Below the pieces are notes generated by a model that saw nothing but the letters and a program-made list of their open reading frames with translations, was not told the DNA's origin and ran no database searches. This document shows, one piece after another, positions 3,026-46,186 of a DNA stretch of 55,647 nt; within the stretch, counting starts at the first letter, position 1, and every line of letters starts with the position of its first letter. Made by a program: the position numbers and the translations under genes. This stretch comes from Bacteroidota bacterium. Lineage in GTDB: Bacteria > Bacteroidota > Ignavibacteria > UBA10030 > UBA6906. The stretch is taken from assembly GCA_038247945.1 (NCBI GenBank), contig JBBRUI010000002.1, positions 1 through 55,647 on the forward strand, in the 5' to 3' direction.

Positions 3026-5655
3026 AAAAATACATTGTCCCCATCGTTATTGCTTTTCTCTCGTTCCTCATCGCATTACTGCTCAGTTCTCCGCTGTCGC
3101 CTCTTGAAGATCAACTCACGGCGTTGAAGTATCGCGTTCGCGGCGACGAGAAGGCAGACTCCAATATCGTGCTCATCTATATCGACTCAGAAGCGATCAA
3201 AGATCTTCAGTGGCCTGTCCGTCGCAATTATTACGCGCTCATGATAAATGCCATCACTGATTTGAAAGTACGCGCCATCGGGATTGATGTGTTCTTTGAA
3301 AATCCAAATAACGAGTATCCTGAATACGATCAGCTCCTTGAACATGTTATCGCCCGCGCGAAGAATGTTGTGCTTAGCGCGTATTTTGATAAACTGATTC
3401 TTGGGGGATGGAAGCTTGCGCGCGTTGAAGGAGGTGACACCCTGTACGATGCGTTCGATTATCCGCAGGTTTCCGATGTGTTCCGTTTGGGCGACGGACT
3501 GCATCTTCCGCTGCCGGCTCTGCTTAAGAGCGCAGCAGGGGTGGGACATGTGAACGTGGAAGAAGACCGGACGCTATCGCTGTTCATCGGAAGCGATAAA
3601 CTCATCGTCCCGTCATTCGGAACCGAAGTGTTGCGCGTTGCAAGCGGCGCGAAACGTGAGAACCTTCGCTACGATCACGAAACGCTTGCGTTGCGAAAAG
3701 AGGGAAAACTACTCGAGATTTCCGCGCCTGAGGGAAGAGTTGATTTGAATTTTCCCGGCCGCATTACTTCATTCACCACATATCCTTTTCTCGAAGTACT
3801 GAAATCCTACGATGCGCTGCGTGCCGGGCGTACGGCCGGGATCCAGGTTCAAAATCTGGAAAATAAAATCGTCCTGCTCGGAGTGATCGCCGAAGGAATA
3901 AGCAAGACGTGGACAACGCCGGTCGATCCGCGGTTTCCTTCGTTGGGGCTTCATGCAGTTTTTCTTGATAACGCGTTGCGTTCGGGTTTTCTCCGCACTG
4001 CGCCGGGCTGGATTATCTATTCGACCGCTCTTCTGTTTGGATTTTGCTGTGCGTGGTTTGTTCTTCTGCGAGGCTCGAAGCCGGCATGGCCCGTTCCCGT
4101 TCTTGTTTTCGTGACGATTCTGATAATTTCATTCCTCTCCTTTACCGTCTCTGCACTGCTGATACCGCTGTCTCCGTTTATTATTGTTGGATTGATAGCA
4201 TCGACTTCGTCACTCTTTTATAAGCACCGCTTTTTACGTGAACAGCTCCAATCCGCACAATCTGAAAAAGAAAAAATAACGATGGAGTTGCGGGATAAGG
4301 AAGCAAAAGTCGCCATGCTGGAGCGCGAACTGATCTCGATCGAATCAAAGAAATCGGAAGACCGGACGAACGAGCTTCTGGAAGACATTCGGAAATACAA
4401 GGCTGAGATTCACGCGCTGAATGCCCGGAAGGACGACATGGAGGAAGCGCTTGTTGCCGATGCGGGCGCAATTTCCACCATGAAGAACTTCGAAGGTATA
4501 ATTTACGAATCCGGCGGTCCGATGCAATCCGTTGTGGATTTCATTGCGAAGATTGCGCAAAGCGAGGCATCGGTGCTGATACTTGGCGAAAGCGGAACCG
4601 GAAAAGAGATGATCGCCCGGTCGATTCACAAGCTCAGCACCCGCGCAGAGAAAACATTTGTTGCGGTGAATTGCGGCGCGCTCTCGGAGGGTCTGCTCGA
4701 AAGCGAATTATTCGGTCACGAGAAAGGCGCGTTCACCGGCGCAGTGAAAGACAAGCTGGGACGGTTTGAACTTGCCGACAGCGGATCCATCTTTCTTGAT
4801 GAGATAGGCGAGGTGAATGAAGGTTTCCAGTTAAAACTGCTGCGCGTGTTACAGGAGGGTGAATTTGAACGGGTCGGCGGCACGAAAACAATCAAAGTCA
4901 ACGTGCGGGTTATTGCAGCGACCAATAAAGATCTGAAACAACTTGTGAATGAGAAGAAGTTCAGGGAGGATGTCTATTATAGATTGAATGTCCTCTCAAT
5001 CAAGCTGCCGTCGTTAAGCGAACGCCCGGGAGATATTCCCTTGCTGATAAATTATTTTCTCAAACGGGAAGGCAGCGAGACAAAAGTTTCCAGAAATGTT
5101 TTGGATATGCTTCAACATTATTCATGGCGCGGAAACATCCGCGAGCTGGAAAGCGTGATTACGCGGGCTGTGTTGCTCGCCAAAGCCGACAAGCGCTCCA
5201 TGATCACGATGAAGGACTTATCCGATGAAATTATCTCCGCAGCAAACAGTTCGATAGCAATCGAAGATCAGATTCTTGAATCCTTACGTGAGAAAGGATT
5301 TTCACGCAGCGCCATTTCAGAAACTGCGGCGGAATTGGGAAACCTGAACCGCGGCACCATTGCGGAATATTTGCGGGGCCAATGCCTGAAAGCGTTCGTT
5401 GAACATACGTATGATCTTGAAACGACAGTCCGTTACATCTCCCTCTCATCCGACAAGGCCGTGAACGACCGTGTCCGGAAGAAAATGATGGAATATCTCA
5501 CCAACCTGGCTGAGGCCGTTGATGTCTCCAAGTCATGGGAAGAAATGAAGCCTGCGCTTCGGTCGAAGATGAAGAACCTTCCGCAAAAATATCATCCGTA
5601 CCTTGAACAGGTGTCGGAGGCATACTTCCGTGGTGTCTGGAAGCCGGAGGGATAG
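3022..5655 (+). CDS. Membrane-bound CHASE2 sensor fused to a sigma-54-dependent AAA+ transcriptional activator (EBP)
   Basis: N-terminal TM helix plus a CHASE2-like block (IVLIYIDSEAIKDLQWPVRRNYYALMINAITDLKVRAIGIDVFFENP), then three TM helices and a coiled coil. The sigma-54 interaction domain follows (VLILGESGTGKEMIARSIH, the signature ESELFGHEKGAFTGA, RVIAATN, RGNIRELES), then a Fis-like HTH (ISETAAELGNLNRGTIAEYL). The start overlaps the upstream stop (ATGA at 3022). Confidence 0.85.
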   Translation: MKKYIVPIVIAFLSFLIALLLSSPLSPLEDQLTALKYRVRGDEKADSNIVLIYIDSEAIKDLQWPVRRNYYALMINAITDLKVRAIGIDVFFENPNNEYPEYDQLLEHVIARAKNVVLSAYFDKLILGGWKLARVEGGDTLYDAFDYPQVSDVFRLGDGLHLPLPALLKSAAGVGHVNVEEDRTLSLFIGSDKLIVPSFGTEVLRVASGAKRENLRYDHETLALRKEGKLLEISAPEGRVDLNFPGRITSFTTYPFLEVLKSYDALRAGRTAGIQVQNLENKIVLLGVIAEGISKTWTTPVDPRFPSLGLHAVFLDNALRSGFLRTAPGWIIYSTALLFGFCCAWFVLLRGSKPAWPVPVLVFVTILIISFLSFTVSALLIPLSPFIIVGLIASTSSLFYKHRFLREQLQSAQSEKEKITMELRDKEAKVAMLERELISIESKKSEDRTNELLEDIRKYKAEIHALNARKDDMEEALVADAGAISTMKNFEGIIYESGGPMQSVVDFIAKIAQSEASVLILGESGTGKEMIARSIHKLSTRAEKTFVAVNCGALSEGLLESELFGHEKGAFTGAVKDKLGRFELADSGSIFLDEIGEVNEGFQLKLLRVLQEGEFERVGGTKTIKVNVRVIAATNKDLKQLVNEKKFREDVYYRLNVLSIKLPSLSERPGDIPLLINYFLKREGSETKVSRNVLDMLQHYSWRGNIRELESVITRAVLLAKADKRSMITMKDLSDEIISAANSSIAIEDQILESLREKGFSRSAISETAAELGNLNRGTIAEYLRGQCLKAFVEHTYDLETTVRYISLSSDKAVNDRVRKKMMEYLTNLAEAVDVSKSWEEMKPALRSKMKNLPQKYHPYLEQVSEAYFRGVWKPEG

Positions 5656-19946: not shown

Positions 19947-22427
19947 ATGAAATCAGCATTGGTTGGAATTGCAGTTCTTGCCGCGTTTGCTCTCTCGTTG
20001 AATGTTTCTGTTACTTCTCGGGAATTCAAGGAAACGCGCTCCGAATCAATGGAAGCATTGGATATGTGGACGTCCCAGCGGTCATATCCTCATCAAGACA
20101 TCTCCCCGGACGCTTTCTACAAAGCATACACGCTTGCTCAATCCCAGTTACGCGAAGCAGCCGTTTCCGGCGGTGATCAGTGGCGATCAATTGGCCCGAC
20201 GAATTTCTCGGGACGCATGATTTCTGTCGCCTTGAATCCTCTAAACGGTAATACGGTCTATGCGGGCGCGGCAAGCGGAGGTTTGTGGCGGTCGCGTACC
20301 GGCGGATTGGGCGGTGACTGGCAACGCGTGGCGACAGGTTTTCCTGTTCTTGGTGTGAACGCAATCGCAATTCACCCGGCGGATTCAAATACAATTTACA
20401 TTGGAACCGGTGAAGTATATCGCTATCTCGGATCAACCGGTGGTATTGTCATTCGAACAACCCGCGGCAGTTACGGCATGGGAATTCTCAAGACAACAAA
20501 TGGCGGCCTCACCTGGACGAAGAGCCTCGACTGGTCGTACAACCAACAACGGGGTGTGCAAGCCCTCCGCATAAATCCCCAAAATCATCGGATACTTTTT
20601 GCTGCCACCTCGGAGGGAATATTTAAATCCACCGACGCCGGAGGAACGTGGAATCGTACTTTGAATGTGTTGCTCGCTGAGGATATCGTTATTAACGCCA
20701 ACGATACTACTCTCGTTCTTGCGACCTGCGGTAACTTTTCTTCGCCCGGCAGAGGAGTATATCGCTCGACGGATGGAGGCAATTCATTTAGCATCGTCGC
20801 GGGTTTGCCTGCATATTCCGGCAAGGGAATGCTCGAAGTCTACAACACGAATCCGCAAGTCGTATACGCAAGCCTTGCGGACAGCACGACAGGGAATGGC
20901 AGTCTCTGGCGAACAACAAACTTTGGCGCTAATTGGACTTTGGTGAGCAGTGAAGCGCTGTACGGAGTTCAAGGCTGGTATTCCCAATTTGTTGCAGTGC
21001 ATCCCACAGACTCCACGAAAATTGTTCGCGGTGGAGTTAATATTTACAAATCAACAAACGGCGGAACATCCTCAACACAAAAATCCGGTGGATATTATGA
21101 TATGCATAACTACGCGCATCATCCCGCGAACCCAAACATTCTCTATCTCGTGAGTGACGGCGGCGTGTTTCATTCGACAAATTTCGGAGATAGTTATCAG
21201 GACGCGAACACCGGGCTGCTGACATCGCAATTCTACAACGGCTTCTCGAATTCAGCGCAAGACTCCCTTATGGCCTTGGGCCAGGTGCAGGATCATTTTG
21301 GATATAAGTACACGGGATCTCTTTCATGGCCTTCCGGCGGTGTAGATGAAATCGGGTGGACGGCAATCAACCAACAAAATGATATGGTGCAGTATGCCGG
21401 CAACCGGGGAGGGGGAAGCATCTACAAGTCAACGAACCGCGGGATTTCATTTCAAAGTATCACAGGAAGTTTTTCGGGAGCTTCTTGTTGGAATACGCCT
21501 TTTGTGTTATCGCGTTCCAACCCGAGTATTCTCTACTTCGGGCGGAGTGTTGTGTTCAAAACCACGAACGCGGGAACAGCGTGGTCTGCCACGAATGGCG
21601 GCGCTCCGCTCGACGGAAATCCGCCGCTTTGTATGGCGATTGCGCCATCAAATTCAGACACGGTATTCGTTGGAACCGTTCCCGGCAATGTTCGCCCTCA
21701 TCTGTATCGAACGACAAATGGCGGAACATCGTGGACTGATGTAACCGGAACGCTGCCGAACCGGTATTATCTCGACATCGCTGTTGACCCGAACAATTCT
21801 AAAATTGTGTATGTAGCTGTTGGAGGGTTCGATACAACGCGCGTTGCCAAGTCGACAAACGCAGGCATTAGCTGGAATGACATCAGCGGCAGCCTGCCTA
21901 ACGTCCCGACGACTGCGATTGCAATCGATCCCTCAAACTCAAATCACGTTTATGTTGGAAATGATCTTGGCGTGTATGTATCATCGAACGCGGGCGGTAC
22001 ATGGATGAGTTTCAACGACGGATTTCCCGAAGCTGTGATTGTGGGAGATCTTGTTGTCTCGCCTTCGAACCGGATGTTACGCGTCGCGACACATAGCAAC
22101 GGTGTGTACGAACGCAAACTGCTGAGCGGGACAACAGATATTTCAGAGTCGCTGAATCTGCCCGGTGGATTTATTCTTGAACAGAATTATCCAAACCCGT
22201 TCAATCCTACAACTCATTTCAAATTTCGGATTGCGGAATTCGGATTTGTATCATTAAAAGTGTTTGATATGCTGGGGAGGGAGGTTGCAACCCTCTTGAA
22301 TGAGGAAAAGAATCCTGGCGAGTACGAAATCCAATTTAACGCCGGTTCCTTATCGAGCGGAATATATTTTTACAAGCTTGTTGCGGGATCTTTTGCCCAG
22401 TCAAAAAAAATGCTGCTTCTGAAATAG
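19947..22427 (+). CDS. BNR/sortilin-Vps10-like (GH74-like fold) double-propeller protein with T9SS C-terminal sorting domain
   Basis: The ATG at 19947 gives a signal peptide. About 12 Asp-box-like motifs (TTNGGLTW, STDAGGTW, STDGGNSF, TTNFGANW, TTNAGTAW, TTNGGTSW, STNAGISW, SSNAGGTW). C-terminal sorting domain LEQNYPNPFNPTTHFKF...GIYFYKLVAGSFAQSKKMLLLK. Confidence 0.8.
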   Translation: MKSALVGIAVLAAFALSLNVSVTSREFKETRSESMEALDMWTSQRSYPHQDISPDAFYKAYTLAQSQLREAAVSGGDQWRSIGPTNFSGRMISVALNPLNGNTVYAGAASGGLWRSRTGGLGGDWQRVATGFPVLGVNAIAIHPADSNTIYIGTGEVYRYLGSTGGIVIRTTRGSYGMGILKTTNGGLTWTKSLDWSYNQQRGVQALRINPQNHRILFAATSEGIFKSTDAGGTWNRTLNVLLAEDIVINANDTTLVLATCGNFSSPGRGVYRSTDGGNSFSIVAGLPAYSGKGMLEVYNTNPQVVYASLADSTTGNGSLWRTTNFGANWTLVSSEALYGVQGWYSQFVAVHPTDSTKIVRGGVNIYKSTNGGTSSTQKSGGYYDMHNYAHHPANPNILYLVSDGGVFHSTNFGDSYQDANTGLLTSQFYNGFSNSAQDSLMALGQVQDHFGYKYTGSLSWPSGGVDEIGWTAINQQNDMVQYAGNRGGGSIYKSTNRGISFQSITGSFSGASCWNTPFVLSRSNPSILYFGRSVVFKTTNAGTAWSATNGGAPLDGNPPLCMAIAPSNSDTVFVGTVPGNVRPHLYRTTNGGTSWTDVTGTLPNRYYLDIAVDPNNSKIVYVAVGGFDTTRVAKSTNAGISWNDISGSLPNVPTTAIAIDPSNSNHVYVGNDLGVYVSSNAGGTWMSFNDGFPEAVIVGDLVVSPSNRMLRVATHSNGVYERKLLSGTTDISESLNLPGGFILEQNYPNPFNPTTHFKFRIAEFGFVSLKVFDMLGREVATLLNEEKNPGEYEIQFNAGSLSSGIYFYKLVAGSFAQSKKMLLLK

Positions 22428-22477
22428 TATCATATGATACTAACTATAACTAACTATAAATAATCACGGTCCGTTGC

Positions 22478-23272
22478 ATGAAGACAGTTGTTTACCAATC
22501 CTATCGCACTTCCAATGTGGCTCCCTGGATTACCCGATGTATGGAGTCCGTGAAGTCATGGTCGATACTCAATGGATTCGAATATCGTTTTATCGATGAC
22601 AGAATCTTCGACTACGTTCCCTCCTCATATAAGGAAAAGGCAAGAAATAATATGCTGTTGATGACTGATCTGGGGCGGCTTGAACTTGCCCGAGAATTGC
22701 TTGATGAGGGATTCGAACGGACAGTGTGGGTTGATGCCGATGTCATCATATTCAATCCCCCCAAATTCAGCGTGGATATTAAGGAGGATTTTGCGTTCTG
22801 CCGGGAGGTATGGATACATCATCCGAAGCTCTTCGGCGTTACACTTCCGATAACACGGTGTAACTTCAAAGTAAATAACGCAGTGAGCGTATTTACAGCT
22901 TCAAGCACTATGTTGGATTCTTACCGAATGTCATGCCATTCTTTGGTTGAAAACATGCCGCGCGTATTCGACCCCGGTTTCGTTTCTACAACATATCTGA
23001 CATCGCTTCATAAACAAAATCCGCTGCCTCTTCTGACGAACGTCGCGTTATTGAGTCCGCTGGTACTTCATGACCTTGCAAATGGCGGGGGAAGATATGC
23101 ACGCTTGTTTATGGAGAAATTCGCATATCCGGTATACGCCGCCAACCTCTGCAGTACAATGAACAACGGAAAACACATGGGCATAAGAATACATAATGGG
23201 ATGTATGATGGAGTCATCAACCGTTTGCTTGAAACGAAAGGCGGAATCCTCAATCAATACCTTCCGCGTTAA
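22478..23272 (+). CDS. Hypothetical cytoplasmic protein, possibly a DXD-motif glycosyltransferase
   Basis: No signal peptide. The segment LLMTDLGRLELARELLDEGFERTVWVDADVIIFNP resembles the sugar-binding DXD region of Gly_transf_sug/Caps_synth-type enzymes. This is a weak call. Confidence 0.35.
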   Translation: MKTVVYQSYRTSNVAPWITRCMESVKSWSILNGFEYRFIDDRIFDYVPSSYKEKARNNMLLMTDLGRLELARELLDEGFERTVWVDADVIIFNPPKFSVDIKEDFAFCREVWIHHPKLFGVTLPITRCNFKVNNAVSVFTASSTMLDSYRMSCHSLVENMPRVFDPGFVSTTYLTSLHKQNPLPLLTNVALLSPLVLHDLANGGGRYARLFMEKFAYPVYAANLCSTMNNGKHMGIRIHNGMYDGVINRLLETKGGILNQYLPR

Positions 23273-23546
23273 CCTGAATTCATAAAATAGCTGTTGCTAT
23301 TGGCGGGTGCGGTTAGTATTTTGTACTCGTCAAAAACAGTACACCGTTGTTGAGCTTTTACTCTCCGCGTAAGGAGAGGTTTTGCTAGAGTTGTGGTAAA
23401 TAAACCCGTAGCTAAACAAAGTCAATCGCAACCGTGGAGAATTAGACCGGGTTGCGATTTGATGTTAAAAAGGCACATCGAGCTGGCTGTATCATAAGTG
23501 TCCGTTGACGACGGATTTGTTTAACACAACGAAAGGACTTTTTCCA

Positions 23547-36945: not shown

Positions 36946-39464
36946 ATTTTCCCGGCGAGGGTGATTGGTTGTTGTTGGAACGGCAGGCGGACGAACACGG
37001 TTGTACCCTTTCCTTCGTTTCCGATTACGGATGCCATGCCCCCGAGCATCCGGGCCCTCTCGGAAATACCAAGCAAGCCCAACGATGCATGCGTTTGAAG
37101 TTGCTCTTGCGTAATCCCACGCCCATTGTCTTCTATCTGCAATTCAATATTTCCATCCGCCAACTTCACGGAGAGCGCAACATGCGTAGCCCCCGAATGC
37201 CGCGCAATGTTGGTGAGGGATTCCTGAAAAATGCGGAAAAGCGTGATAGCGATTTCTTCAGGGAACTGCGTATCGGTTATATCGGTCGTGAGAACACAAT
37301 CGATGTCTGTTCTCTTCTTGAACTCCTGGACCTGCCATTGAAGAGCGTCCATCAATCCCAGTTTGTCCAACACGCCCGGCCTCAGGTCTGTTGCAATTCG
37401 CCGCACGGTGGCAATCGCCATGTCAATGGTGGAAGAAAGTGCCCGTGCACGTTCAAGAAGCGGCCCGGTTTCGATCATCTTATCAAAGCGCAATGCCGCT
37501 TTTTGAACAAGAGCCGCTTCAATCTTGAGCACGGTCAATTGCTGCCCGAGCTCGTCATGCACTTCGAGTGCAATTCGTTTCCGTTCTTCCTCCTGGACTT
37601 TTTGCAGGTAGCCCGAAAGTTTTCTTAGTCGCTCTTCTGATTCTTTAAGAACCTCCTCCGCCTGCCGTCGTTCCGTAACGTCATTCATCAACACCAGCAG
37701 GCGCGATTCATGCGCGTATTGAAAAGGAACAAACCGGCAGGAGAGCCAGACATCTTTCCGTGTTGGGGAAGCGGTGTGAGTTTCAATCGCATGTTCGCGG
37801 CCGGTCTCAAGGGCGGCCAATGCAGAGTCCAGCAATCCAAATTTCTTCCACGATTCCAGTTGCTGGAATTTCTGTTTCCGCAATTGTTCGAGTGGAACAC
37901 CGACAATTTTCGCCTGCGCCTCGTTCACCGTAATCAGTTCTCCGGACGCTTTGTACGTCGTAATTCCAACCGGAGACTTCTCGATGACGGTGTTTGCATA
38001 TCCGAGGGCGCCGGAAAGTTCCTCCTCATATTTTTTTCGTTCGGTGATGTCCTGTACCATCGCCATCGTCCCAGTATACTCACCATACTCGTTCCGCAGC
38101 GGAGTATCAAACCAATCACAGAGTATTCTCCGGCCGTCTTTCGTGATATTTTCATTGATTCCATTCACTGTCGCATCGCTTGTCTTCAACTGTGCAACTA
38201 GGTTTTCGATCACCTCTTTCAATGGTTCCGGAATGATTAAGCCATACGGTTGTCTGCCGAGAACATCTTGTTTCGAGTAGCCGAAAATCTTCTCGCTCGC
38301 CGGGTTCCACTCGCGGATCCTAAACTGCTCATCGAATAGTATGTACCCTATGGGCATCCGCTCAAATTGAAGCTGAAGTTGTTTGAGAATTCTGTCACGC
38401 TCCTCGGCAAGGTAGCCCTGATCAAGTTCGGCGAGTTTCAGCGTTGTTATGTCCAGCATCGAACCAAGCATGCGTGTAGGATTTCCGTTTTCGTCACACA
38501 CAAGATATTCCCGGTCCAGCACATATCCATACGACCCGTCGACATGCAGGAAACGGTATTCATGAGACCAGGTGGGCATCTTGCTTGTGAAGGCTGCTTG
38601 GAAGCTTGCCTTGACCTTCTCGCGGTCGTCCGGATGAATTCGGGATTCCCAGGCCTCGAGTGTGGCAATTGCATTCTCTTCGTACCCATATCTCCTTGTC
38701 AACGTTTCATTCCACCATAACCTGTTGTTGCGGATATCCCAGTCCTTGACAGCATCATTTGTCGCACGCGCGATAAGTTGAAATCGCTCGCTGGACAAGC
38801 GCTCCGCTTTCTCCGTTCGTTTCTGTTCGGTGATATCAGACGAAACTCCGATGATGCCGACGAGATTTCCGCTTTCGTCATAAATAGGTGAGTCGGTGAC
38901 CGCCGCAGGAAATGATGTGCCGTCACGGCGTTGAACTTCGAACTCACCCGACCAACTGTTCCCGGCTTTCACCTTCTCCATCACTTCGGCGGCCTGCTCT
39001 TTCGAGGGGCCAACGGGGACGAGCATGGTGATATTTTTGCTGATAGCTTCCGGGGTCGGCCATCCATACAGAATCTCTGCGGCGCGGTTCCAATACTTGA
39101 TACTACCGTTGACATCGGTGGCGATGACTGCTTGCTCGATAACGTTGAGAAGGTGTGCCTGAAAAATAATTTGTTCATCGGCGCGATTTCGTTGATCTTC
39201 AACTTTCATTCGTGCCGTAACATATCGTTGTAATACAGCAAAGAGGAGCGTTGCTGTCACAATCACGAATACCCAGCCTTTTACCGCCGATAGTTTTATG
39301 AATACATCTCCATTGGCGGCAAACAGAGAAAGGAAATAGTCGGAGAGTGTAATCCAACTACCGGCGAAGATAAGGTAGAGGAGAGCGATGTTTATGGGGA
39401 GGCGGGAACCCTTTTCTTCCCCTGAGGGCTTGAGATTCATAATATCCGGGGTTCGTTCAATCAC
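36942..39464 (-). CDS. Multi-PAS sensor histidine kinase (HisKA_3 / HATPase_c, NarX-LiaS type)
   Basis: Two N-terminal TM helices and about five PAS/PAC units. The H-box is EEERKRIALEVHDELGQQLT, followed by an ATPase region (FRIFQESLTNIARHS...DNGRGI...GLLGISERA). Confidence 0.9.
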   Translation of the reverse strand: MIERTPDIMNLKPSGEEKGSRLPINIALLYLIFAGSWITLSDYFLSLFAANGDVFIKLSAVKGWVFVIVTATLLFAVLQRYVTARMKVEDQRNRADEQIIFQAHLLNVIEQAVIATDVNGSIKYWNRAAEILYGWPTPEAISKNITMLVPVGPSKEQAAEVMEKVKAGNSWSGEFEVQRRDGTSFPAAVTDSPIYDESGNLVGIIGVSSDITEQKRTEKAERLSSERFQLIARATNDAVKDWDIRNNRLWWNETLTRRYGYEENAIATLEAWESRIHPDDREKVKASFQAAFTSKMPTWSHEYRFLHVDGSYGYVLDREYLVCDENGNPTRMLGSMLDITTLKLAELDQGYLAEERDRILKQLQLQFERMPIGYILFDEQFRIREWNPASEKIFGYSKQDVLGRQPYGLIIPEPLKEVIENLVAQLKTSDATVNGINENITKDGRRILCDWFDTPLRNEYGEYTGTMAMVQDITERKKYEEELSGALGYANTVIEKSPVGITTYKASGELITVNEAQAKIVGVPLEQLRKQKFQQLESWKKFGLLDSALAALETGREHAIETHTASPTRKDVWLSCRFVPFQYAHESRLLVLMNDVTERRQAEEVLKESEERLRKLSGYLQKVQEEERKRIALEVHDELGQQLTVLKIEAALVQKAALRFDKMIETGPLLERARALSSTIDMAIATVRRIATDLRPGVLDKLGLMDALQWQVQEFKKRTDIDCVLTTDITDTQFPEEIAITLFRIFQESLTNIARHSGATHVALSVKLADGNIELQIEDNGRGITQEQLQTHASLGLLGISERARMLGGMASVIGNEGKGTTVFVRLPFQQQPITLAGKI

Positions 39465-39762
39465 TCGACAATGACCATAGCATACTGTGTGGAATATGTT
39501 CGCTCAATTCTTAAGTCGAACATGTGGATTGGAGGGAAATCGGCCACATTGGAGAGTTCAGTATGTGTACGAATGTAGAGAAAACCTCTGCGCAATACAA
39601 ACTGGCAGTGCTCAAGTTTGAATCGAGTCTGCCACTTTGCCGGACGAGATAGTGTCCTAATTTGAAAAAAGAGGAAGCGGGATTGGCACAAAACAAAAAT
39701 CTTCGGGAGCGAATTTTCCGTTCATCGCTTAAACGTTCGATTGTGGCGGTGGTGGAGTGAAA

Positions 39763-39794
39763 TAAAAAAGCCGGAGTGGTTAGCTCCGGCTTTT
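39763..39794 (-). terminator. Intrinsic terminator downstream of hicB (bidirectional-looking hairpin)
   Basis: Stem GCCGGAG / CTCCGGC with a 7-nt loop. It is flanked by AAAAAA on the plus strand (a U-tract for the minus-strand transcript) and TTTT on the other side. Confidence 0.7.
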
Positions 39795-39816
39795 ACAGTA
39801 GAGGCGATCATCCTAC

Positions 39817-40227
39817 TTATGCTGCTTCAAGTTCGGTTTTTTCTTCTGCGAGTTCGTTTTCCAATGCAGAAATCGTTTTCACGCCTCCGCCAGTATCTTT
39901 CGTATCCGCATTTATTTTAGATGAGTCGGCGAAAGACCATCGTTCGTATGGAGTTACTATCCAAGCATCTCTAACGACAACCGGAGATGGTGTTGGTCCG
40001 GGTATTTCGTTTCCCCTCTCCATTCGTGCGGTGATATATTCGTCAAACAATTCTTGGACGTTAGCTACAGCTTCGGCTTCTGAAGTGCCGTCCGTTTTGC
40101 AGCCACGGAGTTCAAGATACTCCGCAGTCCAGTATTCACTGCCATCAGAATCTTTGACAAGATCTGTGCGTAACGTATAGGGTAAACGTCTATAATCCTG
40201 TAATGTCTTCTTTGTCGTCGTGTCCAT
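39817..40227 (-). CDS. hicB: HicB-family antitoxin-like protein
   Basis: YWTAEYLELRGCKTDGTSEAEAVANVQELFDEYITARMERGNEIPGP matches the HicB/UPF0150 N-terminal fold pattern. I prefer the ATG at 40227 because GGAGGA lies 5 nt upstream; 40239 is the alternative. No obvious RHH/HTH in the C-terminal part. Confidence 0.65.
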   Translation of the reverse strand: MDTTTKKTLQDYRRLPYTLRTDLVKDSDGSEYWTAEYLELRGCKTDGTSEAEAVANVQELFDEYITARMERGNEIPGPTPSPVVVRDAWIVTPYERWSFADSSKINADTKDTGGGVKTISALENELAEEKTELEAA

Positions 40228-40495
40228 CGTGTCCTCCATTACTAGTTGGTGACCGTTTTATCAGGTCGTCTATTAACTTAACCGCCTCACGTGCTACATA
40301 TTCCTTCAGTTTATTGTGCCGAGGAACGCTAATCCATAAATCACTAAATGTTGGGTGCCAATAAATTGCGTGTTTCCCTTGTTTACACTCAAATCCAAAT
40401 CCAATAAGTAGACGTTCAAAATCTTTTTGTCCCCATCCCGATGACGAGCTACGCATTTGTTCGAGTATTTTTTGCGCGGCTCTACCACCATTCAT
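40190..40495 (-). CDS. hicA: HicA/YcfA-family toxin-like protein
   Basis: FERLLIGFGFECKQGKHAIYWHP...WISVPRHNKLKEYVAREAVKLID matches the HicA pattern (GF...G.H......vP.H..l....v..i). It lies toxin-first relative to hicB, as is canonical. It overlaps hicB by about 38 nt, and its ATG overlaps the upstream stop (ATGA). Confidence 0.6.
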   Translation of the reverse strand: MNGGRAAQKILEQMRSSSSGWGQKDFERLLIGFGFECKQGKHAIYWHPTFSDLWISVPRHNKLKEYVAREAVKLIDDLIKRSPTSNGGHDGHDDKEDITGL

Positions 40496-40902
40496 CCCGC
40501 CCCAGCCTCTCTAAGCTGTATAACAGTAAAGGGAATCCTCCCTAAAAATCGTTCGTTGATGAACATAACAAACTCATAGTGACCAGCTTTCATAAACGGG
40601 ATGTCCTGTAGCTTGGTTACCATCCCAGCCCTAACAACAGACTGACTCGCTGGAGAAGGGTTCAACACTATTTTCTGTTCGAATGACGCGAGTTTGGTTG
40701 CCTTGTTGTCGCGTAATTCCATCGACAGAGTATGGTCACCTTTTTCTGCTGCTACACCTTCTAGATCGACAACGATAGTCATGTCCCTGTGAACGCTTGG
40801 GAGTTTTCTAGCGAAAATTATATCGAAAATTCCCATAGCATTCACTTTCCTATTCTCGTCTAATGTTGCAGAATCGGCAAGGAACGCATATCTAACAAAC
40901 AT
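40492..40902 (-). CDS. Unknown 136-aa protein, first gene of the hicAB operon (possibly DUF6941-like; assignment from memory only)
   Basis: It is translationally coupled to hicA. It is predicted beta-rich, with no signal peptide and no catalytic motif recognised. The N-terminal pattern YAFLADSATLDENRKVNAMGIFDIIFARKLPSVH recalls small DUF-type proteins. Confidence 0.55.
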   Translation of the reverse strand: MFVRYAFLADSATLDENRKVNAMGIFDIIFARKLPSVHRDMTIVVDLEGVAAEKGDHTLSMELRDNKATKLASFEQKIVLNPSPASQSVVRAGMVTKLQDIPFMKAGHYEFVMFINERFLGRIPFTVIQLREAGAG

Positions 40903-41335
40903 AGCTTCGGCGACATCAATGTGGCTTTGAGGCAGGACGTGTCTTTAGGTGACACTCTTTACTGCAAAACAACTTGACAAAGTTACACTTCCGCCTCTGC
41001 AATGTCAACACCGTATAAGAGATTATCGACACTTCCTGCACAATATATATAACGCTGCTTTCCTGAACTTTGTTGCGTAACACACAATTGTGCTACACTA
41101 TCAATAGTCCTCGAGGGTAACTCACGGTCATATCAAGTAACACGCAAGGCATTCATTCCAAATTGGGCACTTCTTTAAGATCTCGAATGCGATTTGCGGG
41201 ACTATATTTTTCCCGTTACTTTTACTCGTTTCCAACCGCGCAATTTAGAAAATCCCTACACTTAAGCACTACCTACAAACTTGATGACTTCCACCTTGTG
41301 TTGTATACCGGATTCCATTATCTTTTTGCGCACTG

Positions 41336-41893
41336 ATGAAAGAAAGGATTCTCCGGTTGGCCCCAAAAGCTTCGTACGTACTTTCCAAAAATGAGTTAAG
41401 GCATCGTGCCCGCAACATCAAACTCGTTCTCTCTGATTGCGATGGTGTATTGACCGATACGGGTGTCTATTATTCCCAAGCTGGCGAAGCAATGAAACGA
41501 TTCTCCATACGTGATGGAATGGGGACAGAGTTGCTTCGTAAAGCTGGAATTGAAACAGGCTATATCTCCGGAGAGACTTCTCCCGGATTGAAGAGACGTG
41601 CAGAAAAATTGAAGTTGGTCCATCTCTATTTGGGGATCGATGACAAAGCCGCAACCCTGCGGAAAATCCTTTCGAAGACAAAACTCTCTGCCGCAGAAAT
41701 TGCGTACATTGGAGATGATGTCAACGACCTTGATATACTGAAAGAAATAGGCAAAGCAGGTCTTACTGCAACGCCGGCAGACGGAATGCCGATCGTCAAG
41801 AAATCGGTACACTACGTATGCAAAGCTAAAGGCGGCTACGGGGCATTCAGAGATTTTGCAGATTGGATTCTGCAACTTCAGGCTGGCCAGTAA
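41336..41893 (+). CDS. kdsC: KDO 8-phosphate phosphatase (HAD-IIIA, YrbI/KdsC family)
   Basis: IKLVLSDCDGVLTD (DxD nucleophile motif), FSIRDGMG, and AYIGDDVNDLDIL...PADG. Confidence 0.85.
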   Translation: MKERILRLAPKASYVLSKNELRHRARNIKLVLSDCDGVLTDTGVYYSQAGEAMKRFSIRDGMGTELLRKAGIETGYISGETSPGLKRRAEKLKLVHLYLGIDDKAATLRKILSKTKLSAAEIAYIGDDVNDLDILKEIGKAGLTATPADGMPIVKKSVHYVCKAKGGYGAFRDFADWILQLQAGQ

Positions 41894-41927
41894 ACCTCAT
41901 TACTCACATTTCAAAAAGGAACTTCCG

Positions 41928-42497
41928 ATGAAAAAGATTTTTCCGGCGTTACTCGCAATTATCATTCTCGCTTCGTGCAACAAACAAAAGGTCGAACCTC
42001 CCAAGGAGGTGCAGCAGAGTCAACCCGCAGAAAGCAGTGTGAGCTCTGCGGCGGGTGTCCGTTGGGATGTCCCTTCATCCTGGACGGTTGCCCCGGCAAA
42101 ACAAATGAGAGTCGCCACGTATAGCATTCCCGCGGCCAAAGGGGATGGCGAGGGAGCTGAATGCGGCGTGTTTCATTTCGGGAGCGGGCAGGGCGGAGAT
42201 GTAGAGATGAATATAGACCGATGGGTAAAACAATTTGAAAATGCGGACAAACCCGATCGCTCGTCGAAAGAAGTGAACGGAATGAAGGTTGAACTTGTGG
42301 AGATTGCAGGAACGTATCTTGCACCAAGCGGCCCTATGATGCAATCAAGCGGGAAAAAAGATAACTACCGGTTGCTCGGCGCGATCATTTCAGCTCCGGC
42401 AGGATCCGTGTTCTTCAAACTGACCGGGCCGGCAAAAACTGTTGGCGATGCCGAAAGCGACTTTGATTCCCTCGTAGATTCTATCACGAAGCAATAG
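41928..42497 (+). CDS. Hypothetical lipoprotein
   Basis: The ATG at 41928 gives MKKIFPALLAIIILASC (lipobox). The ORF-track start at 41856 would overlap kdsC. Confidence 0.65.
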   Translation: MKKIFPALLAIIILASCNKQKVEPPKEVQQSQPAESSVSSAAGVRWDVPSSWTVAPAKQMRVATYSIPAAKGDGEGAECGVFHFGSGQGGDVEMNIDRWVKQFENADKPDRSSKEVNGMKVELVEIAGTYLAPSGPMMQSSGKKDNYRLLGAIISAPAGSVFFKLTGPAKTVGDAESDFDSLVDSITKQ

Positions 42498-42509
42498 CCG
42501 AAAATAAAA

Positions 42510-42538
42510 AACGCCTTCCCTTGTCCGGGGAAGGCGTT
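42510..42538. terminator. Bidirectional intrinsic terminator between convergent genes
   Basis: Stem AACGCCTTCC / GGAAGGCGTT with a 9-nt loop. The A-tract upstream gives a U-tract for the minus-strand transcript. Confidence 0.7.
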
Positions 42539-42561
42539 GTAGTAAACTCTTGCCGCACAAC

Positions 42562-42852
42562 CTATTCCAACAAGCTCTCCACCTTTTTCGCAAACTCCGC
42601 GTCCAGGTTACTGATTCCCCCCACGTCATGCGTTGTCAAGTCAATGATGACCTTGTTGTACACATTGAACCACTCCGGATGATGGTTGATGCTTTCGGCG
42701 ATCAGGGCAACACGCGCCATGAATCCGAATGCCTCAACAAAGGATTTGAACTTGAATTCCTTGTGCAGCTTCGCTTTCTGAAGTTTCCAGCCTGCAAGGG
42801 ACTTCACCGTTGCGGTGATTTCTTTCGGAGATAATTTCTTTGCTTTCGTCAT
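42562..42852 (-). CDS. phhB: Pterin-4-alpha-carbinolamine dehydratase (PCD/DCoH)
   Basis: [63 protein letters not shown] is the classic PCD signature. Confidence 0.9.
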
Positions 42853-42870
42853 GACATTCCTTTCTATGCA

Positions 42871-44001
42871 TCAATTTGATGTAGGGGCGTTCCGTTGTTT
42901 TTCGTACGTCAACAATTCTCTGCATTCCGAGCTCATTGGCTTCGGCCCTTCGCCGGATGTGTGCGCCCTGATTTTCGATGCGTCTCCCCGGCGCGGCAGA
43001 TACACTTTGCCGATCGGCATCATATTCAACTCCTTCAAAACGGAAGCGACCTCGAACGGAAAATCGATGAAGCCAAAATTCCCTACTGTTGTTTCGACTA
43101 CAATCGAGAGTCTGCCTTTCGGTTTAAGGATGCGAACGCCTTCACGCACGATCGTTTTCAGTTTCATCATTGTCTCGGCTTTCGCGGCGTTCACCGAGAA
43201 ATCCGAATCCTCTGATCTCGGATAAAAATCAGAAGGCGGATCGAGGAACACATAGTCCACCGTTCCCGATTGTTCAGGAATTCCCGTCTGCACGATATTC
43301 GCCCGTTGAATCCCTTCACTGCTCGGATCGATATCGTACATCTTGAATGTACGGTTGCTGAAATGAGGTACTGAAGTAATAATGTCGCCTGTCGTTCCGC
43401 TTCCTGCCATCGGGTCAACGATGCGCCAGCCGGGCTCAGTATAATAGAAAAGCGCATTGGCGATAATCTGTCCCGCCAGCCTTCCCTTGTAGCCTGCCTT
43501 TCCGAACCGCGGGTCAGGCGCGTCGAACGACCAGACGTTGCGCTCTTTCAGGTCGAATCCAAATTTCGTCTTCTCATCCTCACGCCGCGTGAGATCATCC
43601 TCGCGAATTTTCTTCTGCAGATCGGAGATGGTCCACCTGTTCGCTATCGCATTTTTTTCGTACTCTGTTCGTTTTCGGCTGTCGTCAACTTTTGTGGCGA
43701 GATCGAAATAAAAAATTTCCGGCAACGCACGCTTCTCCACATCGGGATAGTACGTGTAGAACATCTGACATTGCTTCAGCATACTGAATGGGAATTTAAA
43801 TCCCGGCACGTCCGCCATTCGTTTCAAAATCTGTTCTCCGAAAATTCCTTCCTTCAGCGCGGTAGGGATTATTTTTTCCACAAGAAATTTTCCGAGATCC
43901 CAATAATTATCGGCAGAGAATGAATTGAGCTTTTCGATGAGCGGATCGAGAGACGAGACTTTGCCTGACTTTGGTTGTGCAACGGGGGCGGTCTTGGCCA
44001 T
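42871..44001 (-). CDS. Atypical SAM-dependent (DNA?) methyltransferase with a YhcG_N/DUF1016-like N-terminal domain
   Basis: The ATG at 44001 is preceded by GGAGGAATC. SAM-binding motif I is IVDPMAGSGTTG. It is preceded by NVWSFDAPDP...LAGQIIANALFYYTEPG, which resembles the region before motif I in N4/N6 MTases. The motif IV position reads FLDPPSDFY, i.e. DPPS where (D/N/S)PP(Y/F/W) is expected. The N-terminal YWDLGKFLVEK...GFKFPFSMLKQCQMFYTYYPD resembles the DUF1016 N-terminal domain. Confidence 0.6.
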   Translation of the reverse strand: MAKTAPVAQPKSGKVSSLDPLIEKLNSFSADNYWDLGKFLVEKIIPTALKEGIFGEQILKRMADVPGFKFPFSMLKQCQMFYTYYPDVEKRALPEIFYFDLATKVDDSRKRTEYEKNAIANRWTISDLQKKIREDDLTRREDEKTKFGFDLKERNVWSFDAPDPRFGKAGYKGRLAGQIIANALFYYTEPGWRIVDPMAGSGTTGDIITSVPHFSNRTFKMYDIDPSSEGIQRANIVQTGIPEQSGTVDYVFLDPPSDFYPRSEDSDFSVNAAKAETMMKLKTIVREGVRILKPKGRLSIVVETTVGNFGFIDFPFEVASVLKELNMMPIGKVYLPRRGDASKIRAHTSGEGPKPMSSECRELLTYEKQRNAPTSN

Positions 44002-44185
44002 GATTCCTCCGGCGTAAATGGTTGAGGGCTGAGTTGATCGCGCTTCTGCAAGGTTGCAGTCCGCGTTCAACTGAAATGTTGATGAACAATACTATAAAAC
44101 TGTAAGGAATGCAAGGTAAGAACCACGCCGCGTTGATTTTTGGGAGAAGATTTTCATTGTTAGTAGGGACTACATAAGGAGCAAC

Positions 44186-46186
44186 ATGATGAAGAAGTTG
44201 ATAATTATTGCGATGATGTTTTTTCTGGGACATGAATCGCCTTCACAGCAATGGCTGAGGGTAGATTCTGTGTTCAACCCTTCGGGTGTGGCCGTGCAAA
44301 ATTTTTCAGCGCCGGAATTTGCAGACCTGAACGCTGACGGAAACCCTGACTTGCTACTGGGAAATGGATCGTCGGCGAGGGTTGGTTACTTCCGGAATCT
44401 TGGCCCGGTCGTTCCTCCGAAGTTCCGGTCGGACACATCCATGCTTTCATCCATTTACGCGGGTGGCGGGACGAATTCCGACTACCCCGCAACGTGCGAC
44501 CTGGATGGCGACGGCGACCTCGACTTGGTCGTAGGTGGATATAATGGCATCCTCTTTTATAAGAATATTGGCGACACGCTTCAGCCAACCTGGCAACGCA
44601 TTGATACCGTTTTTACTTCGGTCAATTCTCTGATCGGAACGGATGCTAAGCCTGCGTTTGCCGACCTGGACGGGGATGGCGACTTTGATCTTCTGGTGGG
44701 AATCGGCGAGTCGCTGTTTGGCGGCCCGACTCCCGGCACCACGATGGGATTCCGGAACACAGGCACCCGCAACCAACCGCAATTTGTGCAGGATAACACG
44801 CTTGTCGCAGGCATCCCCGACATTGGGTTGAATTCCTATCCAACACTCAAAGATATCGACGGCGACAACGACTTTGATCTTCTCCTCGGCCGCGACCTGC
44901 AAACGTTTGTGTACTTTCGAAACACCGGCAGTGTTTCATCACCCATCTGGACTGGTAATTCAACAACATTCAACGTCGTGGAATCTGGTACGTATTGGAA
45001 AGACCCGACGTTTTTCGATCTCGACAAGGATAATGACTACGACCTTATCTACGGAACATCGGACGGAACGATTTATTATTATCAGAACATCGGAACGCGG
45101 ACGGCGCCACAGTTTCAATATAACCCCAACTACTTTCCTGTTATCCGTGCTTCGGGAAATGCCGCGACAGCTTCGGTTGCAGATTTTGATAATGATGGTG
45201 ACGTTGACATGATCAGCGGAGATTGGCTTGGCGGATTTCAGTATTTTCGGAACGACGGGACGCCGTTCGCTCCGCGCTTCACAAAAACAACTTCCAGTTT
45301 CACATCATTGAATGTTAGCAGTTACAGCTCTCCGGTTTTTGTAGACCTGGATAATGATAATGACAAAGACATTGTTGCCGGTGCGCTGAACGGAACGGTG
45401 TACTGCTACATCAATAACGGAAGCAGCTTCACACAGAACACGACAATGTTTGCAGGGATTGATGTCGGGTGGATCAGCGCCCCTGCGCTTACCGACATCG
45501 ACAACGATGGAGATAAAGACATGATCGTCGGAGCGGAAGATGCACCGGTGCTTCAGTTTTACAAGAACCAGGGTGGAAACGTGTTTGTTCAGGATAACAG
45601 TTTTATCGCCGGCGTTACGTCGGTGCGGAACGGTCAGCCGGCGTTTGTGGATCTGGATCGTGACGGCGACTTTGATCTCGTGATCGGCGGGATAAACGGC
45701 CGCTTGCTGTATTATCAAAATACCGGCACTGCAATTTCACCCTCGTGGTCGCGCAACGATGCGATGCTTGCAGAAATTTCCGTGCGTCAGGATGCCGCCC
45801 CCGGTTTCGCCGACTTTGATGGCGACGGAAAGGCGGATGTCATACTCGGTGAGTATAACGGGAACTTCAGCTACTATAAAAACCAAATGCCGACTTCCGT
45901 CGTGGATCGGCGTGAAGTGCCGGAATCTTTTTCCCTCCACCAAAATTATCCTAATCCGTTCAACCCATCTACCCAAATACAATTTGCAATTCCCACATCA
46001 GGATTCGTTGAACTGAAAGTTTTTGATCTGCTGGGAAAAGAAGTCGCAACACTTGTTAATGGACAACTGGAACAAGGGAACTACAGTGAGAGTTTTAATG
46101 CGGCAGGACTAACAAGCGGTGTGTATTTCTATCGACTCAAAGCCGGAAGTTTTGTACGAACGATGAAGATGGTTGTTGTGCGGTAA
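44186..46186 (+). CDS. FG-GAP/VCBS repeat (integrin-alpha-like propeller) protein with T9SS C-terminal sorting domain
   Basis: Many DLDGDGDLDLVVG / DIDGDNDFDLLLG / DFDNDGDVDMISG calcium-binding repeats. C-terminal sorting domain LHQNYPNPFNPSTQIQF...GVYFYRLKAGSFVRTMKMVVVR. Confidence 0.85.
   Translation: MMKKLIIIAMMFFLGHESPSQQWLRVDSVFNPSGVAVQNFSAPEFADLNADGNPDLLLGNGSSARVGYFRNLGPVVPPKFRSDTSMLSSIYAGGGTNSDYPATCDLDGDGDLDLVVGGYNGILFYKNIGDTLQPTWQRIDTVFTSVNSLIGTDAKPAFADLDGDGDFDLLVGIGESLFGGPTPGTTMGFRNTGTRNQPQFVQDNTLVAGIPDIGLNSYPTLKDIDGDNDFDLLLGRDLQTFVYFRNTGSVSSPIWTGNSTTFNVVESGTYWKDPTFFDLDKDNDYDLIYGTSDGTIYYYQNIGTRTAPQFQYNPNYFPVIRASGNAATASVADFDNDGDVDMISGDWLGGFQYFRNDGTPFAPRFTKTTSSFTSLNVSSYSSPVFVDLDNDNDKDIVAGALNGTVYCYINNGSSFTQNTTMFAGIDVGWISAPALTDIDNDGDKDMIVGAEDAPVLQFYKNQGGNVFVQDNSFIAGVTSVRNGQPAFVDLDRDGDFDLVIGGINGRLLYYQNTGTAISPSWSRNDAMLAEISVRQDAAPGFADFDGDGKADVILGEYNGNFSYYKNQMPTSVVDRREVPESFSLHQNYPNPFNPSTQIQFAIPTSGFVELKVFDLLGKEVATLVNGQLEQGNYSESFNAAGLTSGVYFYRLKAGSFVRTMKMVVVR

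Follow-up and report, generated by a model that had tools for sequence, protein, structure and literature searches.

Genes at the locus

We analysed a 55,647-nt stretch of DNA from a Bacteroidota bacterium (assembly GCA_038247945.1, contig JBBRUI010000002.1; class Ignavibacteria), hereafter called the window, and in particular a block on its minus strand (39763-41335) that holds three short, overlapping genes: gene A, encoding a member of the Pfam family DUF6941, gene B, encoding a putative HicA-family toxin, and gene C, encoding a HicB-like antitoxin. A preliminary description of the window had suggested that these genes form a tripartite variant of the HicAB toxin-antitoxin (TA) module. The genes and the two protein segments that are central to the following are:

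40492..40902, minus strand: gene A, 136-aa DUF6941 protein, an all-beta sandwich, the third component (Pfam, AlphaFold2 (AF2) model, fold search)
40190..40495, minus strand: gene B, putative 101-aa HicA-family toxin (Pfam, PHROG, PADLOC (weak), AF2 model, fold search, motif conservation)
39817..40239, minus strand: gene C, HicB-like antitoxin of 140 aa, or of 136 aa with the start at 40227 (orthologue profile, PHROG)
40433..40495, minus strand: N-terminal extension of the HicA-like protein, residues 1-21, helix a0, motif A.KLLE.MR.S.SGW (conservation, AF2 model)
39820..39993, minus strand: C-terminal tail of the HicB-like protein, residues about 83-140, without DNA-binding domain (Pfam, tail alignment)

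The three genes lie at the positions first given for them, and the TGA stop of gene A and the ATG of gene B do share four nucleotides as ATGA. The overlap between genes B and C, originally put at about 38 nt, depends on which ATG starts gene C: it measures 38 nt with the second ATG (40227), which is preceded by GGAGGA and yields an N-terminus that fits the homologues better, and 50 nt with the start at 40239. The public gene call for gene B (P0350, 88 aa) uses Met14, a start inside the gene (window 40457-40495); the conserved N-terminal motif MNG..A.KLLE favours the 101-aa start that overlaps the stop of gene A.

The DUF6941 protein

Gene A matches DUF6941 (PF22091) with 92.1 bits (cut-off 27) over positions 2-124 of the 125 positions of the profile, and a genome-wide search (91.7 bits) recovered the family as a single copy. 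The Pfam entry carries no function, and DUF6941 or PF22091 was mentioned in no paper found in the literature searched. The beta-rich character that had been noticed in the translation was borne out by the AF2 model (134 homologues), which is a ten-strand beta-sandwich with a pLDDT of 96.4. The neighbours of this model in the PDB are only generic Ig-like or jelly-roll folds (TM-score about 0.5), among them the Wzt carbohydrate-binding domain, UNC119/PDE6D and TEAD; the DNA-binding Ig-like domain of AlkC was a weak Foldseek neighbour. The Pfam scan of gene A detected no DNA-binding family or motif. The possibility that gene A encodes a SecB-like chaperone was considered and rejected: the protein is an all-beta sandwich, it does not match PF02556 and SecB is absent from the PDB fold matches. 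Two phage proteins of 134-138 aa in BFVD (A0A2P1JU14 of Anoxybacillus phage A403, and A0A2H4JCJ7) resemble the DUF6941 model with TM-scores of 0.73-0.80.

The HicA-like and HicB-like proteins

The assignment of genes B and C to HicA and HicB held in profile and fold checks, with borderline scores for the proteins of the window themselves. Gene B matches PHROG 353 ('toxin', E 3.5e-5) and is labelled HicA-like, weakly, by PADLOC; two HicA orthologues score 31.5 bits (locus L030 of our collection) and 24.3 bits (L052). The AF2 model consists of an extra helix (residues 3-16) followed by a helix (23-32), three strands (36-39, 43-46 and 54-57) and a final helix (65-81), i.e. an a-b-b-b-a core (pLDDT 84-91) that is preceded by a helix a0. 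Its best meaningful PDB neighbour is HicA of B. pseudomallei (6g26_E; TM-score 0.64 on the target, root mean square deviation 2.3 A, 56 columns). In an alignment of 80 homologues, G40 and H42 of the motif G-x-K-H and R59 of the motif PRH are nearly invariant and H60 is invariant; H42 would be the catalytic histidine of the solved HicAs, on a reading of the motif rather than on a superposition. Residues A7, K9, L10, L11, E12, M14 and W21 of the extension are likewise nearly invariant or invariant, and the HicA subfamily that carries the extra helix counts 562 members.

Taken together, these matches point to gene B being a HicA-family RNase toxin that is presumably neutralised by the product of gene C. 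It is most improbable, in our estimate, that the pair is not an active TA system and that the HicA-like protein is a non-toxic RNA-binding protein within a trio that forms some other RNA-related complex. The borderline HicA and HicB scores and one locus that lacks the catalytic motif (L016) fit such an explanation, but the near-invariance of the G-x-K-H histidine and of PRH in the 80 homologues speaks against it, as does a locus in which an insertion sequence (IS) element has disrupted hicA and hicB has been lost. At that locus (L090:1363-2755) an ISL3-like transposase gene breaks hicA after about residue 66, hicB is absent and DUF6941 is intact; the pattern hints at the inactivation of what may be a toxic gene.

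As judged from its profile matches, gene C carries a HicB domain (partial RNase H-like) at its N-terminus. The profile built from 11 orthologues matches solved HicB structures (HicB3, 4p78, E 4.7e-4; 6g1c, E 1.2e-3; then 6g1n and 9svk), gene C itself matches PHROG 497 ('HicB-like', E 1.2e-6), and the orthologues in L052 (29.1 bits) and L030 (32.8 bits) pass the threshold of Pfam HicB_lk_antitox. Classical HicB proteins of classes 3 and 4 carry a C-terminal ribbon-helix-helix (RHH) or helix-turn-helix (HTH) DNA-binding domain. The absence of such a domain from gene C, suspected at first inspection, was confirmed: no RHH, HTH or other DNA-binding family was found at E<=1 with Pfam, and none was recognised in the tail alignment. 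The remainder of the protein does form a tail, as had been described, of 45-58 aa, but calling it acidic or unstructured does not describe it fully. The tail begins after the IPEP/IPGP motif that ends the domain and contains three elements that all recur across 17 orthologues: a hydrophobic strand V.[DE].WIIVP (VVVRDAWIVTP in the window), a motif (D/E)T.(D/E)T, and a nonpolar C-terminus that ends in alanine in ten of the 17 (..ELEAA in the window). Such an alanine-rich, nonpolar end may be a degron for a protease, which a partner protein might either hide or display.

Conservation of the trio

We collected the genomic neighbourhoods of homologues of gene A and found the order DUF6941-hicA-hicB in about 30 loci, mostly with the ATGA overlap and with unrelated flanks, from at least four phyla (Ignavibacteria/Bacteroidota, Marinimicrobia, Chloroflexota and Gemmatimonadota). 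All close homologues that could be placed (46-82 % identity) occur in the order A-B-C and most retain the 4-nt overlap between A and B, next to flanks as diverse as SecD/SurA, cobalamin adenosyltransferase/TPR, acylphosphatase/IspF, tgt and others; the flanks are all different in loci L002, L004, L007, L010-L015, L021, L067, L085-L088 and L091-L093. In nine further metagenome loci genes A and B were adjacent in all nine and gene C followed in seven, the remaining two being one locus that ends with its contig and the disrupted locus L090. Distant DUF6941 proteins (28-35 % identity) also head the trio, in Marinimicrobia (L067), in loci of the Chloroflexota type (L052, L063 and L064) and in L029/L030, and a degenerate trio was found in Gemmatimonadaceae (L016). 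A reverse look-up from the HicA subfamily, with three members that were picked solely by the size of their contig, recovered DUF6941 directly upstream and HicB downstream in three out of three cases. The neighbourhood survey thus agrees with the proposal that the third gene belongs to a tripartite variant: because the close and several of the distant homologues keep the three-gene order in unrelated contexts, the product of gene A is a conserved partner and no chance neighbour.

Within the phylum of the window, DUF6941 was detected in five of 401 genomes, and in none of the five genomes of the same genus. The clade to which the DUF6941 protein of the window belongs had no match in plasmids, phage records or viral contigs (queried with the window protein, a near-consensus member and the clade alignment). 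An empty-site comparison was attempted with the kdsC orthologues of five same-genus genomes and of four among the same-family genomes searched, which have neither the kinase gene nor the downstream lipoprotein gene within 1.5 kb, so that no synteny was left to compare.

Putative transcription signals and composition

Two putative signals enclose the three genes:

39757..39794, minus strand: intrinsic terminator with a perfect 11-bp stem, a 7-nt loop and a T-run (repeat search)
40978..41008, minus strand: promoter-like element, TTGACA (41008-41003), 17-nt spacer, TAACTT(TG) (40985-40978) (read from the sequence)

The clean terminator that had been noted behind gene C is present, with its stem at 39794-39766 followed by TTTTTTATTT. 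The promoter-like element lies about 75-105 nt upstream of gene A; it may act as the promoter of the cassette and was not scored in a stricter sigma-70 scan of the window. A TTGACA/TTGATA-N17-TA..TT element is similarly placed upstream of DUF6941 in the cassettes of L007, L011, L086/L087 and L093, and L088 and L090 carry similar elements, all the compared cassettes lying in unrelated flanks. Since the element recurs in several homologous cassettes, a promoter and a terminator appear to move together with the unit.

A conserved palindromic operator shared by the compared cassettes was not found upstream of them, and the repeat GTGTC-N7-GACAC of the window (40955-40939) is not conserved among them. 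One subclade of cassettes (L012, L013 and L092) has a direct repeat GGCTCA(A/G)TTTG, present twice, 21 nt from start to start, about 60-100 nt upstream of DUF6941; this repeat, absent from the window, is a possible operator. An Rfam search of positions 39400-41500 gave no match. We also considered a 28-nt imperfect inverted repeat that brackets the block (39593-39620 / 41276-41303, 79 % complementary) as a transposon end and rejected it, since its seed of about 9 nt is expected several times by chance in 2.1 kb.

The block had been called compositionally foreign, and it is indeed atypical: its G+C content of 43.8 % (window, 49.6 %; adjacent kinase gene, 50.7 %) places it within the lowest 1 % of same-size sliding windows, and the G+C content at third codon positions (GC3) is 44 % in gene A, 32 % in gene B and 40 % in gene C, against 54.5 ± 3.9 % (minimum 47.8 %) in 28 open reading frames (ORFs) of at least 250 aa. 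The difference in G+C is about 6 percentage points, however, and not the about 20 points of the first estimate. The module is rare, patchy and horizontally mobile, to judge from its patchy distribution, its low GC3 and the promoter-like element that accompanies it.

The position of the block between a two-component system and kdsC was correctly described: one flank consists of a PAS/HisKA_3 kinase and a LuxR-type response regulator, and the other of a gene of the HAD superfamily (kdsC-like); a type IX secretion system (T9SS)-tailed FG-GAP protein and a subtilase are encoded farther out. The neighbourhood is housekeeping or regulatory and not a defence island.

DUF6941 and other toxin families

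The DUF6941 family comprises about 2,200 cluster representatives and was found in 166 of 401 genomes in the phylum of a Chloroflexota metagenome-assembled genome. In a sample of 33 Chloroflexota and Bacteroidota loci that was drawn blind to context, nine (about 27 %) showed tight coupling to a TA system: one to HicAB, six to ParE and two to a DinJ-C-like antitoxin. In the ParE-linked loci (L039, L041, L042, L043, L048 and L055) the order is DUF6941, a short antitoxin and a ParE-family toxin (37.5 bits); of the two DinJ-C-like loci (L045 and L049), one continues with a YafQ toxin (107.9 bits) and in L049 no toxin was detected. The ParE- and YafQ-linked antitoxins (75-83 aa, Chloroflexota) contain no DNA-binding domain recognisable with Pfam and start with strand-like segments, e.g. 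IKFTNVRW and IKITNIRISL. Two more DUF6941 loci adjoin VapBC or BrnTA pairs.

A tree was built from 50 proteins of the DUF6941 family. A single clade of 29 (SH-aLRT 91) takes in every TA-linked member, and the protein of the window belongs to a clade of 12 that is entirely HicAB-linked (SH-aLRT 99); the context labels are far more clustered on the tree than shuffled labels. Thus, members of a specialised DUF6941 clade have become associated with at least three toxin families, namely HicA, ParE and YafQ, in each case with antitoxins that lack a DNA-binding domain. Gene A is a clear member of the Pfam family, and the TA-linked subclade is a specialised part of this wider family.

These data also bear on the possibility that DUF6941 is a mere passenger, with no functional relation to the compact hicAB pair, devoid of a DNA-binding domain, in whose operon it lies. 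The wider family is mostly not TA-linked, and a tight coupling in about one quarter of the context-blind loci is compatible with such an explanation; on the other hand, about 30 loci from at least four phyla, with unrelated flanks, share the ATGA coupling and the gene order, the look-ups from the side of HicA recovered DUF6941 each time, and a single DUF6941 clade joined three toxin families. This retention across loci disfavours passenger status, which we consider improbable.

Several other arrangements of DUF6941 were recorded. In L094:843-1904 and L098:541-1971 a GNAT-like acetyltransferase region (RimJ/RimL-type) lies in frame directly upstream of DUF6941 with no stop in between, representing either a fusion or adjacent genes, and in L020 a GNAT gene precedes DUF6941. 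In L026:928-2667 DUF6941 is found beside restriction-modification genes (MethyltransfD12 with RE_SacI), the DUF6941 locus L063:1-2045, 4871-5261 contains an MmeI/Eco57I-type methylase, and a TIR-WD40 protein also lies beside DUF6941 among these loci, a defence-like setting that is unlike the window. A protein of 2431 aa in which the clade profile scores seven apparent DUF6941 repeats (P0032) was examined as a domain fusion and discarded as a false positive, caused by EF-hand repeats with a GK.NA.GIFD-like motif. No second Pfam domain was found in the other long forms of DUF6941, and most of the long open frames in Chloroflexota are artefacts of read-through in GC-rich sequence.

A further possibility is a defence function of the abortive-infection type, with DUF6941 as its sensor or trigger, which would sense a phage protein or another cue of infection and free or activate the HicA RNase, for instance by pulling on the HicB tail or on the extra HicA helix. 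Ig-like sandwiches are common binding modules, and the trio has a sporadic distribution, is mobile and has a low G+C content. The phage proteins that share the DUF6941 fold at a TM-score of 0.79 could be mimics or decoys, some relatives adjoin restriction-modification or TIR genes (L026, L063), and HicA modules have often been proposed as defence genes (PMC10865869). Yet no PADLOC model matches DUF6941, the neighbourhood in the window is housekeeping or regulatory, and the clade of the window was not recovered from viral contigs, phage records or plasmids; moreover, DUF6941 is well conserved within this clade (59 % mean column identity), unlike fast-evolving sensors. We therefore regard a defence trigger as rather unlikely.

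Comparison with described systems

Tripartite TA systems are rare, and to our knowledge the SecB-like chaperone of the toxin-antitoxin-chaperone (TAC) systems is the only helper that is well understood. Examples of TAC are HigB1-HigA1-SecB(TA) of M. tuberculosis and HicA-HicB-SecB(TA) of Methylomonas methanica. In these systems SecB(TA) binds to a C-terminal extension of the antitoxin, the ChAD tail, and the antitoxin may be HigA, MqsA or HicB; HicAB pairs whose HicB has this extension are among them (Bordes et al. 2016, PMC5105189). The trio described here resembles TAC in being a three-gene type II module with HicAB among its TA families and a small dedicated accessory protein in the operon, and in having an antitoxin with a variable C-terminal extension that holds a short hydrophobic or aromatic element. 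The 45-58-aa tail of HicB contains a conserved hydrophobic strand and may make the antitoxin dependent on gene A, as the addiction extension makes it dependent on the chaperone in TAC. It differs from TAC in that the third protein is a DUF6941 beta-sandwich and not SecB, in that the accessory gene comes first whereas it comes last in TAC (order toxin-antitoxin-chaperone), and in that the antitoxin is entirely without a DNA-binding domain.

Among two-gene modules the nearest relative is Class 1 hicAB of Gerdes (2024; mBio 15:e03293-23, PMC10865869), which is bicistronic and consists of a HicA of 60-85 aa and a HicB of 60-90 aa without DNA-binding domain. The two share the order hicA-hicB, overlapping genes, a HicB devoid of a DNA-binding domain and the a-b-b-b-a fold of HicA; the present module, however, has a HicA of 101 aa with an additional helix at the N-terminus, a HicB of 136-140 aa that includes the patterned tail, and a third gene, which lies upstream and is translationally coupled to hicA. 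DUF6941 appears in none of the 14 HicA contexts of that survey, which contains no such three-gene class (PMC10865869). What we describe looks like a three-part version of a two-part HicAB system, and one that appears undescribed.

With regard to omega-epsilon-zeta and paaR-paaA-parE, the likeness is that the extra gene comes first and that the antitoxin itself has no DNA-binding domain. DUF6941 might then be the missing autoregulator that provides operator binding, as omega and PaaR do in those systems. The position of the gene, the lack of a recognisable DNA-binding domain in all DUF6941-linked antitoxins examined and the weak structural neighbour AlkC, with its DNA-binding Ig-like domain, can be cited in favour, and Gerdes (2024) leaves the regulation of hicAB modules without a DNA-binding domain unexplained (PMC10865869). 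But omega and PaaR are RHH/HTH repressors, whereas DUF6941 has neither a DNA-binding motif nor a match to a DNA-binding family of Pfam; no conserved palindromic operator was found upstream of the cassettes; and many solitary DUF6941 genes have no TA pair to regulate. An autoregulatory role is, in our opinion, doubtful and has little probability.

A proposed role for DUF6941 at the antitoxin extension

We favour the interpretation that the locus is a self-contained, horizontally mobile three-gene type II TA module in which DUF6941 most likely acts on the extension of the antitoxin, and assign to it a probability of about one half. The conserved trio, the tailed antitoxins without a DNA-binding domain and the DUF6941 clade that joined three toxin families together make an action of DUF6941 on the antitoxin extension the most economical explanation. 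The product of gene A is made first, in translational coupling to the toxin, and HicB has exchanged its DNA-binding domain for the patterned tail; in the proposed scheme DUF6941 would bind this extension and set the folding, the stability or the availability of the antitoxin. By analogy, its role would be functionally like that of the SecB-like chaperone on the ChAD tail in TAC, with an unrelated fold and another gene order, and the effect may be either protective or triggering.

Several observations weigh against this interpretation. The HicB of the window, taken alone, stays under the Pfam cut-offs (16.6 and 13.8 bits), and gene B reaches 27.6 bits against HicA_toxin (PF07927), where the cut-off is 27. 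A profile of 12 HicA orthologues recovered no solved HicA at E<=1, and the Foldseek E-value of gene B against 6g26 is not significant, the domain being very small. The generic beta-sandwich of gene A has no known chaperone relative. The conserved extra helix sits on HicA, so the contact of DUF6941 could be with the toxin instead of the antitoxin, and a contact with HicB (or HicA) is proposed by analogy. In the degenerate trio of Gemmatimonadaceae (L016) an 85-aa HicB without C-terminal tail is combined with a HicA-like protein without the G-x-H motif. Finally, many DUF6941 genes are solitary or lie beside unrelated genes (L017, L018, L024, L028, L034, L037, L040 and L062), and the family is therefore not intrinsically a TA component.

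A more far-reaching version of the proposal, which we put forward tentatively and hold to be possible rather than probable, is that DUF6941 represents a second class of accessory proteins in type II TA systems, one independent of SecB. It would be a small beta-sandwich taken up by at least three toxin families (HicA, ParE and YafQ) whose antitoxins carry a strand-containing extension in place of the DNA-binding domain; DUF6941 would dock on this extension (perhaps by beta-strand augmentation) and gate the alanine-rich degron, so that the third protein would set the lifetime of the antitoxin and hence the release of the toxin. If this were true, the dependence of an antitoxin on a dedicated partner would be a general solution, a Pfam family of the size of DUF6941 would acquire a function, and there would be an answer to consider for the question raised by Gerdes (2024) of how hicAB modules are controlled when HicB lacks a DNA-binding domain.

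Other observations in the window

The only other patch of the window with a G+C content as low as that of the block is found at 22150-23300 and covers the 3' end of the gene for an 838-aa secreted repeat protein and a 264-aa ORF (22478-23272). The C-terminus of the repeat protein seems to resemble the T9SS sorting domain at 44186-46186. A 399-aa ORF at 42871-44070 has a weak match to DUF1016_N and methyltransferase-like motifs in its C-terminal part (..DPMAGSGTTGD.. and ..FLDPPS..), and may encode an orphan DNA methylase.

No RNA runs with the sequence were found, and two DNA metagenomes in total hold it. One of these, run X2 (a sand metagenome), contains stretches of the cassette and of the flank with kdsC (40094-43404) in nearly identical form, so that the same or a close strain occurs in a second sample, besides the sediment sample from which the window is likely to stem.

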